64,000 nt of DNA from a virus, in the IMG/VR virus record IMGVR_UViG_3300044641_002513, positions 1 to 64,000 of that record; one strand, written 5' to 3'. Position 1 is the first letter of the stretch. Every line of letters begins with the position of its first letter. A program made the translations under genes and the position numbers. The notes beneath the pieces are model-generated. The model did not search any database. It was not told the DNA's origin and saw nothing but the letters and a program-made list of their open reading frames with translations. This document shows, piece by piece, positions 1,105 through 14,274 of this stretch.

Positions 1105-1995
1105 TTAAAATATGTATCTTATCTTACACCAGCCTATCACCTCTTCAAAAATAGTAGTAAATTCTTTAATGTATTTAGCCTTTAAATCATATCTGTATCT
1201 TAAATTTTCTCCTCCATATTGAGAAGTTTTTATCTCTTGAATATCAGGCCTCCATATTAAATTCTCTCCTTCTAAATTACGTTCTACATTGTTAAGATGC
1301 CTGCCTTTGTTATGGGTTAAGAATATTACCTCAGCTTTTACTGAACTGTTATTCCAACCATGTTCCACAGCAAACCTATTTACTTTTTCAAACAGTTTTT
1401 TGTATTCCTTTAACCAACCGTCAGTTACTATCACAGGACTAAAATTTAAGTGCACTTCGTATCCAGCTTTAATAAAATCTTGCACTGCCCACAACCTATC
1501 TTCTATACTACTTGTTTTAGGTTCTAAAAAATCACTATAAGTTTGAGGCATTAAACTAAACCTAATTCTAATTTTACCTTTAGGGTTAAATTCTAATAAG
1601 TTTTTGTTTACATACTTAGTTGCAAATGAGCCCATAGCTATAGGATGGTTCTTAAAAAATTCAAATATGTACTTCCAACTATGGTGTTTTGCGTGTAAAG
1701 CAAAATCTTCGTTGCACGATAAGTCGTAGGTTATATACTCACTGTGAGTTTGATTAGGTTTTTCTACATCAGTAAAATAAGCGTGTGTGTTAATAGCTGT
1801 TAATATGTCTCCAACATTAGTAGCTACATCTAGTCCTGTAGGTTTGTGTCTTTTTAAGTAACAGTAAAGACAAGAATACAAGCAACCGAACCCAAAACTA
1901 GGAGTAATAAAGTCAGTTGATCTAAAAGATTCCCTTATGACCATACTTTTTCTTACATTATAAGTTATTTTTTTTAAATTTCCATTTATATCCAT
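1105..1995 (-). CDS. splB: Spore photoproduct lyase-like radical SAM protein
   Basis: CLYSCLYCYL (CxxxCxxC followed by Tyr), SCNED, FATK, RIRFSL, NFSPVI, RY near the C-terminus. Probable start is ATG 1995 (or 1944), overlapping the endonuclease 3' end. Confidence 0.85.
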   Translation of the reverse strand: MDINGNLKKITYNVRKSMVIRESFRSTDFITPSFGFGCLYSCLYCYLKRHKPTGLDVATNVGDILTAINTHAYFTDVEKPNQTHSEYITYDLSCNEDFALHAKHHSWKYIFEFFKNHPIAMGSFATKYVNKNLLEFNPKGKIRIRFSLMPQTYSDFLEPKTSSIEDRLWAVQDFIKAGYEVHLNFSPVIVTDGWLKEYKKLFEKVNRFAVEHGWNNSSVKAEVIFLTHNKGRHLNNVERNLEGENLIWRPDIQEIKTSQYGGENLRYRYDLKAKYIKEFTTIFEEVIGWCKIRYIF

Positions 1996-2650
1996 AAGCA
2001 GTTTTTCTTTTATTTCTACAACAACTACCAATATGACCTGATTTAACATCTTTATTTAATAAAATCAGAGCATCTTTTATGCTTTTAAAAGTCTGTATAT
2101 ATTCATTTTCTAATGAATATTGTTCAACAGGAACAATTATAGCATCAATTGTTTTTTGTGTAACTTCTTTTGATTTTTTTCTACCTGTAGAAGTTATTTT
2201 AATTTTAGCTTTAGCTTCATCTGTATGTTTAAATCCTCTTCTTCCATCAGCTTGTTTTTTTATAGTTTCTGGTTTAAACCAATAACCTCTTTTAGCTGCA
2301 TTTTCTCTTCTAACTTTTTTAGATTTTTCTATTATGTGTTTAGGCATTTTACCTATATTTCCTACACCAGTAATAGCTAGATTATAACCAAATCTTCTAT
2401 GATAAGATTTATATTCCTTTACATAATAATCTTCTCTGTCAATACATTGGTCCAAGAGACATTCTTCAAGTATAATAAAAGAAAAGTTATCTTGTCCATG
2501 CTTTTGCCAAGCATTTTGAAGATAACTATTTTCATGCATACTTTTATTTAGTTTATACTTATGAAGAACAAACCTTTTTGTAATATTAGATGAATAGCCA
2601 ATATATACTTTATTGTCTATTTTGCACTGTATTTTGTAAATTCCAACCAT
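1958..2650 (-). CDS. Free-standing GIY-YIG homing endonuclease (NUMOD3- and NUMOD1/IENR1-like C-terminal domains)
   Basis: GIYKI..KVYIG..KRF..H, LQNAWQKHG, REDYY, GYN; FKHTDEAKAKI; VEQYSL...CCRNKRKTAYGYKWKF. Confidence 0.92.
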   Translation of the reverse strand: MVGIYKIQCKIDNKVYIGYSSNITKRFVLHKYKLNKSMHENSYLQNAWQKHGQDNFSFIILEECLLDQCIDREDYYVKEYKSYHRRFGYNLAITGVGNIGKMPKHIIEKSKKVRRENAAKRGYWFKPETIKKQADGRRGFKHTDEAKAKIKITSTGRKKSKEVTQKTIDAIIVPVEQYSLENEYIQTFKSIKDALILLNKDVKSGHIGSCCRNKRKTAYGYKWKFKKNNL

Positions 2651-2753
2651 ATACAAATATAATCAAAATTTCTTTAATAAAATCGGTAGACCTACCAGAA
2701 GGCCTAATTAACATAGACTTTCTGGTAGATTTTGTTATTACCTTTTTTGTCAT
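2610..2753 (-). pseudogene. Orphaned original 5' end of the splB-like gene (26 homologous codons, then out-of-context read-through to TAA)
   Basis: MTKKVITKSTRKSMLIRPSGRSTDFI matches KKITYNVRKSMVIRESFRSTDFI of the downstream SplB ORF. Confidence 0.8.
2638..2671 (-). promoter_or_regulatory. Hairpin sequestering the GIY-YIG start codon, with an embedded TAnnTTTG promoter element
   Basis: Minus strand AAATTTTGATTATAT-TTGT-ATATGGTTGGAATTT forms 15 bp including G-U pairs; TATATTTG at 2661-2654. Confidence 0.7.
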
Positions 2754-2763
2754 TTTTTTTAAA

Positions 2764-3429
2764 TTATCCAAATTCTCCACTAGGATGTAAACTTTTCTTA
2801 AGTACTAATAAATCAGCTACTTCTTTTGTTAGTATTTCTTTATTTATACTAATTATAGGCCACACTTCTTGTTCCCCTAACACCGCTATTGACCAAGGAT
2901 TACTTAATCTCTTTTCCCAATGGTCTTTTAACACTATTGCTTTATTTAAAATTAAAGGAAGTACTAATGCTTTATCTGAAAAATAGTTATTACCTAGTAT
3001 TAATCTTTTAGCTTCTAAACTTGTCTTAGAATATTTACCTTCTAAAATTAGCTTATAATCTTCTTGATGTTCTTCAGGAATACTAAACACAAATACTACA
3101 TAGTCTTTATTATCATAGTCATCTACATAATTGGGAAAAGCTTGAATAGTAGAATAAAATCTTTCAAAATCTAAATCTCTATAACTTCTACAAACAACAA
3201 AAACATACCCTCTATCATTAAATTTAGGAATATTGCTGTCTGCTAAGTAAGCGTTTAAAAATCTTGATTTATACTTTATCCTTCCCCAGTTATCTAATAT
3301 ATTACAGTCGAAGAGATTTTTAGAAATATTTAATAACGGAAACAAAAATGTTGCTGTTTTTGTATATTTCATCTCCATTAAATTAATACTTTGCCTCCGT
3401 TTTCTAAATAATCTTTTGTATAAGTCCAC
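2764..3429 (-). CDS. Hypothetical protein (replication block)
   Basis: 221-aa ORF; true start probably a downstream ATG near 3378. Confidence 0.7.
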   Translation of the reverse strand: MDLYKRLFRKRRQSINLMEMKYTKTATFLFPLLNISKNLFDCNILDNWGRIKYKSRFLNAYLADSNIPKFNDRGYVFVVCRSYRDLDFERFYSTIQAFPNYVDDYDNKDYVVFVFSIPEEHQEDYKLILEGKYSKTSLEAKRLILGNNYFSDKALVLPLILNKAIVLKDHWEKRLSNPWSIAVLGEQEVWPIISINKEILTKEVADLLVLKKSLHPSGEFG

Positions 3430-12883: not shown

Positions 12884-13165
12884 CTACTTATTATTTAATT
12901 GTTTTTTATAATACTCATCAATTTTTGCAAGTTCTTCAGGTTTTCCTCTTAACTCACTTATAGGAGGCAATTGATAATAACCACCGTACTCGCCTACAAA
13001 TAGAAAGCTTACTAACAAGTTTCTCTTACCATCACGATTTTTTAAGATTTTTAAAAGTCTATACCTGTCTTTAAACTTAGTTATATCGTAACCTAAACAA
13101 TTGTCTACACCAACATAAAAAGGACTTTCTATACCCATTACGGTATTAGCATCTTCTGCTAGATT
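12884..13165 (-). CDS. dnaB: DnaB-like replicative helicase, exon 2
   Basis: NLAEDAN..., ILKNRDG; joins exon 1 in frame as DIKDTG|NLAEDA (359 aa in total). Confidence 0.88.
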   Translation of the reverse strand, partial: NLAEDANTVMGIESPFYVGVDNCLGYDITKFKDRYRLLKILKNRDGKRNLLVSFLFVGEYGGYYQLPPISELRGKPEELAKIDEYYKKQLNNK

Positions 13166-13476
13166 CAGAGTTGTTATCCACAAAGTTTTTTATCTCTGTG
13201 TTCTATATATTTCTATATAGCTCGGCATACGTTTTCATCTTCACTAAAAAGTGTTAAGATGCTGAGGACTCGTGGGAGAATTATATTCTATTTCTAGTTT
13301 CATCTCCTATGCTCTGCCCCTGACTATTTTTTTACAAATAGCCTTCGGTTCAAGTTACCTTCATCTTGCAATGGTCAGGCTTTCTTGCTTTATTCCTCAG
13401 TGCAATTTAAGAATTTCTTCTTAAATGGGCTATTAATATTTGCGTTTTTGTCTTATAATACAAACATTTTTATTAA
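13166..13476 (-). mobile_element. Group I intron without ORF (311 nt) in dnaB
   Basis: 5' exon ends in U, intron ends in G; P3 CUGAGGA/UCCUCAG, P7 GCAUA/UAUGC, P8 CAUCUU/AAGAUG, P9 CUAUAUA-GAAA-UAUAUAG; splicing restores the helicase motif. Confidence 0.9.
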
Positions 13477-14274
13477 ACCTGTGTCCTTAATGTCCTGTAA
13501 CTCAGGCATCCAGCCTTCTTCCATTTGTCTATGCTTCTGATTCTTGTCACGATTAATCTGAGATACTACTACTGGACTGAAGTTACACGTATTTCTAAAG
13601 AATACTAAGTGTTTAGAAGCCATATCTATAGCTTCTTTCTTACTAGTAAAGTCTTTATAATTGATGTGGCCTATATGGTCAATAATAATTAAAGTTATTA
13701 AGCCTGGATTGTTAGGAGTATAACTAAGAATATTGCCTTCGTCATCTCTAAAAAAAGTACCTCGTTTTTCAGCATACACCACTAAATCTCTAAACAATGA
13801 TTTAGGACTAAGAGCTGTTTTAAATCTGATATACTTTTCTTGTATCTCATTCATTCTTTCCTCGTAACTCAGCAACAACTGTTTAACTATAGGCCTAATC
13901 TGCTTATTACCCTTTGATTTAATCTCGTTAGTATCACTAAGAATACCGTGTTCTTTCCATAGCAAACTTACAATGTGTTTAGCAATCTGGTCTTCTGGCG
14001 GTATTTCTAGTGAGTAATAGATTATTTCTAAATTGTGAATATAGTTAGGATTGTTTTGTAAGAAACTTATAGCACCGTAAACATAGGTAGAATCTAAGAA
14101 AGCAGATTTACCAATTGATGTAGGAGCAAATATAAGGTCGTACCTTCTTTGTTGAATGTTTTGAATATGGTCGCTTAAAGTAGTAAAGCCTTCAAAAGGA
14201 ATACCTGTATTTAAGCCTTTCTCGCCACGTTCAATTTCTTCTTTTAATCTATCCCAATATTTAACTTTTGCCAT
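13477..14274 (-). CDS. dnaB: DnaB-like replicative helicase, exon 1
   Basis: APTSIGKS Walker A, YSLE, IIIDH, VSQINR, PELQDIKDTG. Confidence 0.9.

Follow-up and report, generated by a model that had tools for sequence, protein, structure and literature searches.

Analysis of a 64,000-nucleotide (nt) stretch of IMG/VR virus record IMGVR_UViG_3300044641_002513 (the window, in whose positions all coordinates are given unless another contig is named) revealed a splB gene whose 5′ end is present twice, together with a free-standing homing endonuclease gene. Judged from its sequence and from that of its relatives, the 770 base pairs (bp) inserted in splB very probably constitute a homing element, which consists of a free-standing I-TevI-type GIY-YIG gene and a replacement for the 5′ end of splB, and which moves without splicing. 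An earlier note on this DNA had proposed at its core such a selfish cassette of 770 bp, carrying a nuclease and a substitute 5′ end and containing no intron. This core is borne out by the existence of empty alleles, by the recurrence of the arrangement in relatives, by the different origins of the two 5′ copies and by the mere 25 nt that remain outside coding sequence.

Organization of the splB locus

All features of the locus are located on the minus strand; ORF stands for open reading frame and aa for amino acids.

2676..2753 (−): copy A, 26 codons (MTKKVITKSTRKSMLIRPSGRSTDFI) that form the resident 5′ end of splB; begins with ATG 2753, ends with ...RSTDFI and is severed from the gene
2651..2675 (−): spacer of 25 nt at the left end of the cassette, carrying TATATTTG 3 nt 5′ of the nuclease ATG; kept in the cassettes of relatives
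1958..2650 (−): free-standing GIY-YIG homing endonuclease gene, 230 aa, ATG 2650; I-TevI-like catalytic domain and possible NUMOD1-type C-terminal part
1906..1995 (−): copy B, 30 codons (MDINGNLKKITYNVRKSMVIRESFRSTDFI) that belong to the cassette and replace the 5′ end of splB; likely start ATG 1995
1105..1995 (−): intact splB, 296 aa, beginning MDINGNLKKITYNVRKSMVIRESFRSTDFITPSFGFGCLYSCLYC; spore-photoproduct-lyase-like radical SAM enzyme (PF20903, 7.9e-25)
1906..2675 (−): insertion relative to empty alleles, 770 bp, comprising spacer, nuclease gene and copy B
1858..1905 (−): more divergent right flank, with 8 changes specific to the window in 48 nt, among them Ser to Thr and Asp to Ser
2610..2753 (−): orphan ORF of 47 aa, made of copy A and an out-of-register tail to the stop at 2610; overlaps the nuclease start
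2764..3429 (−): upstream neighbour gene, an ORF of 221 aa without a Pfam match, given for context only

The main traits of this layout had been described in the earlier note and were recovered here. The orphan ORF starts at 2753, upstream of the GIY-YIG gene, and the copy A peptide reappears downstream in mostly different codons, with 13 of 16 residues and 33 of 48 bases identical and a longest identical run of 6 nt. Deletion of 1906–2675 restores one in-frame gene: joining 2753–2676 to 1905–1105 gives 879 nt with a single terminal stop, and the product is identical to the uninterrupted protein of nuclease-free contig L001 at 282 of 293 positions. The new splB start, ATG 1995, overlaps the last 38 nt of the nuclease ORF in another frame, and the 20 nt on its 5′ side are 60% A. 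The downstream ORF continues in the spore photoproduct lyase/radical SAM frame (...VRKSMVIRESFRSTDFITPSFGFGC). Its product carries the radical-SAM motif CxxxCxxC as CLYSCLYC and belongs to the spore photoproduct lyase family; a protein search returned 4402 relatives. The intact splB is chimeric, its 5′ end being copy B and its body that of the resident gene.

Both junctions are covered, with 2 mismatches, by a 973-nt contig of another, independent study, so the arrangement is not an assembly artefact. Copy A is probably the left homology arm for homing. The orphan ORF that begins with it is probably a by-product, because the frame of its tail is not conserved between loci. A weak terminator-like hairpin with a T-run was found at 2687–2706, within copy A. 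It arises from the native codons for RPSGRSTDFI, is also present in empty alleles and is probably due to chance (1 found, 0.6 expected).

Filled and empty alleles

The earlier note had suggested a comparison with endonuclease-free splB alleles, and such alleles were found. In the IMG/VR contigs L001 and L002 the same upstream gene as in the window is followed directly by uninterrupted splB. The splB starts in these contigs (MLKKVIKKSTRKSMLIRLSGRSTDFISPSF and MTEKVITKSTRKSMLIRPSGRSTDFISPSF) correspond to the copy A sequence, with a base identity to the window copy A of 93.6–94.9%. Base identity of the window to L001 falls steeply within the cassette and rises again beyond it:

Upstream gene: 96.5%
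Copy A: 93.6%
Copy B: 60.9%
First 45 nt past the junction: 73%
Remaining splB: 95.0%

Between the window and nuclease-free L001 the splB bodies share 97.5% identity.

Public lake metagenome contigs, compared with window positions 1400–3200, show both the filled and the empty form as DNA. Contigs, found in runs X15 and X13, join 1904 to 2675 and 1912 to 2683, omitting exactly 770 bp. In run X2 the nuclease-spanning contig has a k-mer depth of about 9 versus about 52 for the flanking contigs, a hint that the filled form is a minority there, contig depth being a poor measure of strain shares. At the cassette locus L011 only 1 of 201 residues differs from the uninterrupted protein P0134, and that residue is two codons past the junction. 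Filled and empty alleles of one fixed site therefore exist in otherwise near-identical genomes. The divergent 48-nt right flank is probably a co-conversion tract. At this flank the X13 empty allele keeps the native Asp codon, and the X2 empty allele is too different to align.

Origin of the two 5′ copies

Copies A and B were compared with each other and with 69 unique native alleles over the segment RKSM..STDFI (16 residues, 48 bases). The best native match of copy A is 47/48 bases in the window, 47/48 in L010 and 44/48 in L009, whereas B copies reach at most 34–40/48 against the same alleles (35/48 for the window copy B). Among B copies, synonymous divergence (pS) is 0.78 and non-synonymous divergence (pN) 0.12; the resulting pN/pS of 0.16 indicates that copy B is maintained as protein-coding sequence. 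B subtypes track nuclease clades. At locus L089 the nearest gene bodies (P0141 and P0146) bear the N-terminus of the L089 copy A. By these comparisons copy A is of the resident type, and copy B is foreign and travels with the nuclease. Copy B is a cassette-specific lineage under purifying selection and has no nuclease-free counterpart.

Among the 120 best SplB relatives the N-terminal block RKSMxIRPSGRSTDFISPSFGxGC hardly varies. The differences between A and B comprise a change from PSG to ESF in one group of cassettes (subtype 1, below) and are purely synonymous in another (subtype 2); among the 120 best relatives ESF is found in a single cassette-type protein only. The Pro codon of IRPSG occupies 2704–2702 in copy A, and its counterpart in copy B is at 1934–1932; the codon lies 25–27 nt 5′ of the insertion point and varies among native alleles. 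In the 120 best relatives this position is P in 84 (82 PSG, one PSN and one PSS), F in 18, E in 10 (nine ESG and the one cassette-type ESF), S in 5 and Q in 1, and A, K, Y and L were each seen once in DNA loci. The variable residue lies at about the I-TevI cutting distance from the insertion point and may trace selection for resistance.

Recurrence of the cassette

Scans of metagenome and viral contigs identified eleven loci with close relatives of the nuclease. A splB 5′ fragment ending in ...RSTD[FY][IM] abuts the cassette wherever upstream DNA exists (L009, L010, L012–L017 and L089), and downstream DNA, wherever it exists, holds a complete splB that has a 5′ copy of its own; the whole order is seen at L009, L010, L012–L016 and L089. 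The contig of L017 ends after copy A and the nuclease. In relatives the nuclease ATG is located about 25 nt past copy A, and farther in L016, which has a longer spacer. The loci with the whole order carry nucleases 67–84% identical to that of the window and represent five distinct cassette forms, the window included. At least four different upstream neighbour genes were found (window, L009/L010 group, L016 and L017). Three cassette subtypes were distinguished by the start of copy B:

Subtype 1 (window, L005, L011, L013, L016 and protein P0056): B start overlaps the nuclease gene, its ATG being provided by the conserved ..AYGYKW.. codons; PSG replaced by ESF or ESS
Subtype 2 (L010 group, L089): native-like B start (MSLVDRVTRKSM) 13 nt past the nuclease stop; PSG
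Subtype 3 (L009): own B start (MVVQEVVRKSM); nuclease and copy B separated by an additional ORF of 143 aa; ASG

An in-frame ATG 5′ of RKSM is present in all three subtypes. In all five subtype 1 loci that could be read as DNA, the frame starting from the equivalent of ATG 1995 is open; this ATG itself is forced by the Tyr-Gly codons of the nuclease. The additional ORF of L009 (1807–2238 of that contig, MEKEFVPYELGVKLKELGF...) overlaps the 3′ end of the nuclease gene and appears to be a hitch-hiking gene in the cassette.

Two loci carry a second, decayed splB remnant between copy A and the nuclease (L016 at 3148–3203 and L011 at 1–40 of their contigs, with GRFTDYL and RFTDFM, respectively). These remnants suggest serial invasions, and a cassette that moved together with an older stump would leave such traces. 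The flank repeat exceeds what chance would give, and it is peculiar to this nuclease family and not to GIY-YIG genes generally: at about 140 loci with distant GIY-YIG genes the flank-repeat background was at most 10/16, against 13–14/16 at the seven splB cassettes with long flanks.

The nuclease

The nuclease matches Pfam families GIY-YIG (PF01541, 1.2e-8) and NUMOD1 (1.4e-4), the latter marginally, its 22.4 bits falling just short of the curated cut-off (22.8). Over its N-terminal 90 residues it can be aligned with the I-TevI catalytic domain (PDB 1MK0/1LN0, E 3e-10), and it keeps the equivalents of I-TevI R27 and E75. With the I-TevI catalytic residues Y6, Y17, R27, H31, H40, E75 and N90 as reference, the nuclease residues Y5, Y16, R26, H30, H39, E73 and N90 were found to be invariant in 18 relatives. 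From this resemblance and the invariant catalytic equivalents the enzyme looks active. Seventeen relatives are 64–87% identical to it, with protein P0002 (87%) among the closest, and the next ones at most 40%; the C-terminal motif AYGYKWKY is conserved among the relatives. No relative of the region was found in the GenBank phage collection by DNA or protein.

The sequence TAnnTTTG is located 3–4 nt 5′ of the nuclease ATG in all cassettes. The window contains it about as often as expected (98 occurrences against 100.9), so that a role as promoter, being unproven, was not adopted. A scan for sigma-70 promoters and terminators gave nothing above shuffled sequences. A hairpin over the nuclease ATG can be folded, but the 91-nt stretch is no more stable than its shuffles (z −0.76). 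An I-TevI CNNNG motif, sought by eye 23–27 nt 5′ of the junction, is present in some native alleles and not in the window lineage, and it was dropped.

Proposed mechanism

In a mixed infection the nuclease would cut an empty splB near the codons for STDFI|SPSF, within the most conserved block of the protein. The left broken end, being the recipient's own first 26 codons, would pair with copy A of the donor, and the right end with the donor gene body; repair would then copy the spacer, the nuclease gene and copy B in between. Both homology arms of such double-strand-break repair homing would come from the target gene itself, and the recipient's own 5′ end would be left stranded as fragment A. 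The recipient would gain a complete chimeric splB, with translation starting inside the 3′ end of the nuclease gene, and neither RNA nor protein splicing would be needed. The target should be broken at both junctions, since the A junction is without the right half and the B junction has a diverged left half. Because copy A would travel as a homology arm, the element would be independent of the upstream neighbour gene.

In subtype 1 the likely splB start and the A-rich putative initiation region are encoded by the conserved C-terminal nuclease codons (..KRKTAYGYKW..), and we tentatively raise the possibility that translation of SplB depends on the nuclease gene. This would amount to an addiction-like lock and, next to introns and inteins, a third route by which the 5′ part of conserved phage genes is invaded, and the variable residue of IR-x-SG (P/F/E/S) could then mark an arms race over the cleavage site. 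If so, any nuclease deletion other than an exact A/B excision would silence splB, and the nuclease gene would be more than a tolerated passenger.

Alternative explanations

A number of observations weigh against homing with a replacement 5′ end. Cleavage of splB, the position of the cut and the immunity of the junctions are predictions made from sequence, as are the homology-arm role of copy A and the use of ATG 1995, and the argument against splicing is drawn from the anatomy of the insert and the selection on copy B. The base divergence between A and B is no greater than that between random native alleles: within loci the two share 29–33/48 bases, about one standard deviation below the native–native mean (34.5, standard deviation 4.1). 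Recoding of copy B beyond ordinary allele divergence was thus not clearly supported, and 'recoded', as the earlier note called it, is overstated; copy B is better described as a separately evolving lineage than as a deliberately recoded one. Subtype 2 (L010 group) retains the native PSG, so an amino-acid change is not needed for whatever protects copy B. None of 79 further splB loci is occupied, in a sample that favoured uninterrupted matches, which makes the element uncommon. Nuclease identities between lineages (65–84%) are similar to those of splB bodies (60–88%), and no near-identical nuclease pair in distant hosts, as a very recent long-distance transfer would leave, was seen. The history could therefore have been vertical to a large extent, interrupted by occasional gains and losses, and long vertical stretches are likely. 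Finally, one nuclease-free X15 contig has a right flank of the window type, with its Thr and Ser variants, joined to copy A (1825–1904 to 2675). The divergent tract may consequently predate the insertion or mark a precise loss, and this contig is either a direct ancestor of the filled allele or a product of precise excision through the shared 7-nt TTTATTA.

The last points are what a passive scar would also leave. On that explanation the nuclease gene landed 5′ of splB by an illegitimate event that duplicated the 5′ end and has been inherited vertically since; copy A would have no role in mobility, and empty alleles would be losses or would never have been invaded. The similar size of nuclease and body divergences agrees with it, as do the junction sequence common to the subtypes, which fits a single origin, and the X15 contig, which is what precise loss via TTTATTA would produce. 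We consider it improbable, because in each lineage copy A matches the resident native allele while the cassette interior is shared, and because an old vertical duplication would let copy A, untranslated past codon 26, decay. Filled and empty gene bodies differ by 0–3% only, and the nested remnants of L016 and L011 also speak against a single passive event. In addition, the nuclease and body trees are not fully congruent: the window nuclease is nearest to that of L009 (84%), while the L009 body is nearest to those of L012 and L089 (86–88%), whose nuclease is only 73% identical to that of L009.

A group I or other self-splicing intron with a nuclease ORF, in which copy A would be exon 1 spliced to TPSF, is very unlikely. 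I-TevI-type GIY-YIG nucleases are classically intron-encoded, the JGI annotation calls relatives of the nuclease 'group I intron endonuclease', and the 770-bp deletion is exactly in frame. However, just 25 nt of the insert lie outside the coding sequence of the nuclease and copy B, too little for an intron core, and the earlier note had seen none. The decisive point is copy B itself: on this explanation it would belong to the intron, but its protein sequence is conserved and its in-frame ATG is found in every subtype. Moreover, an intron would not be expected to contain a redundant copy of exon 1, as copy B would be, the L009 insert holds an extra 143-aa ORF, and the joined form exists as DNA. 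Rfam gave no intron match in the region even at E ≤ 10, nor in the whole window at the gathering score; this is a weak negative, because a candidate group I intron at 13166–13476 is also unmatched (gathering score and E ≤ 10, the control region 12900–13800 being blank). For that candidate, either the Rfam model is insensitive or the candidate itself needs checking.

Least probable of all is a gene in pieces, in which the 26-residue A peptide and the downstream protein would both be needed and would assemble, as for Aeh1 nrdA split by mobE: nuclease-made split genes are documented in T4-like phages and the copy A ORF keeps its native start, but the downstream ORF already holds every residue of the conserved N-terminal block and so makes copy A redundant, and the tail of the copy A ORF is not conserved, stopping two codons past the junction in L016.

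Comparison with known systems

The closest parallel to the homing cassette proposed here is provided by the WHO elements of Torulaspora and Lachancea yeasts, which home into a conserved housekeeping gene, FBA1, and exchange its 3′ end for their own (Coughlan et al. 2020, eLife, PMC7282813). The displaced resident fragment is proposed to act as a homology arm and the replacement end to confer resistance; repeated homing leaves older fragments that form clusters, and cleavage and allele specificity were demonstrated for WHO6 (PMC7282813). As in WHO, an endonuclease gene would have invaded a conserved gene without splicing by bringing a replacement gene end, the nuclease is flanked by a complete, chimeric target gene and by a fragment displaced from that gene end, and the decayed remnants of L016 and L011 resemble the fragment clusters. 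Unlike WHO, the splB element replaces the 5′ end and must supply a start codon and an initiation region, both of which would be inside the nuclease ORF. WHO nucleases are of the intein-like LAGLIDADG-zinc-finger type and act in the eukaryotic nucleus, whereas the splB nuclease is an I-TevI-type GIY-YIG enzyme of a phage and no homologue of WHO/HO; the element would thus work like WHO without being a member of that gene family. In contrast to WHO6, it is known from sequence alone.

Hybrid genes are also created by fungal mitochondrial mORFs, in Allomyces macrogynus atp6 and in atp6, atp9, cox2 and nad3 of Glomus sp. (PMC3630166). Their order is gene core, inserted foreign end, endonuclease ORF and native end remnant, at C-terminal ends; the native remnant hardly differs from its counterpart in close relatives, while the inserted end is divergent, and the atp9 case involves a GIY-YIG enzyme (PMC3630166). 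The splB element has the mirrored order, likewise with a resident-type remnant and a divergent inserted end. mORFs concern C-terminal ends in organelles, often with an in-frame fusion to the endonuclease ORF, whereas here the N-terminal end is replaced and the overlap is 38 nt and out of frame.

Among phages, the free-standing T4 endonucleases SegF, SegG and MobE promote intronless homing by double-strand-break repair with co-conversion of flanks, the donor variant of the target being resistant (PMC2988022). The splB nuclease shares with the Seg/Mob enzymes a free-standing gene adjoining the target gene, and a GIY-YIG domain. Seg/Mob genes, however, lie between genes and have their homology in both neighbours, while the splB element lies within a gene and draws both arms from it. 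No duplicated target-gene end is described in the review of T4 free-standing endonucleases (PMC2988022). Endonuclease insertion has also split genes, as in Aeh1 nrdA/mobE, T4 gene 39/60 with mobA and phage 25 gene 43 (PMC2988022). These too have a nuclease inserted without splicing in a critical, conserved part of a phage gene, but their two complementary polypeptides assemble, whereas the downstream splB ORF is complete and the upstream piece redundant. No phage cassette that replaces a 5′ end was found in the literature, the coverage of which was incomplete and is no proof of absence. By analogy with WHO and mORFs, which do the same at 3′ ends, the mechanism would not be new in kind. What differs here is the 5′ end, the phage setting and a probable start codon taken from conserved C-terminal codons of the nuclease.

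Significance

According to the usual view, homing endonucleases either lie between genes or enter conserved coding sequence only under cover of an intron or intein. The splB cassette family would represent a third solution in phages, that of carrying a spare gene end. The 5′-end version adds a demand absent from the published 3′-end cases, a new translation start, which here would be cut from the coding sequence of the nuclease. The natural record is unusually full, with filled and empty alleles in the same lakes, resident and cassette copies, three subtypes and nested remnants. Being small and open to testing, the element lends itself to mapping what determines target and immunity in a GIY-YIG enzyme.

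Automatic gene calling will give wrong annotations here, namely the orphan 47-aa ORF and a wrong or truncated SplB start, and phylogenies of the first ~40 splB codons will be chimeric. In five SplB proteins of 275–279 aa (P0071, P0085, P0106, P0115 and P0127) the annotated start is the Met within RKSM (M[IV]IRPSG...); their genes may lie past cassettes or on cut contigs.

A second interruption of splB was observed in L012 (1027–2879 of that contig) and also in L010, L014 and L015, where the gene is fractured right after the radical-SAM motif CLYNC[ST]YC. One ORF ends with an N-terminal Hint half (CVTPDTLITTP...), a 294-aa HNH-type gene follows on the opposite strand (1166–2050), and a second ORF opens with an intein C-half (...GILTHN|CYMKRH). 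This resembles the layout of a split intein with a free-standing nuclease described by Dassa et al. 2009 (PMC2677866). L089 has the same cassette as L012 without the split-intein-like fracture. Two independent homing sites would therefore be located in the first 45 codons of splB.

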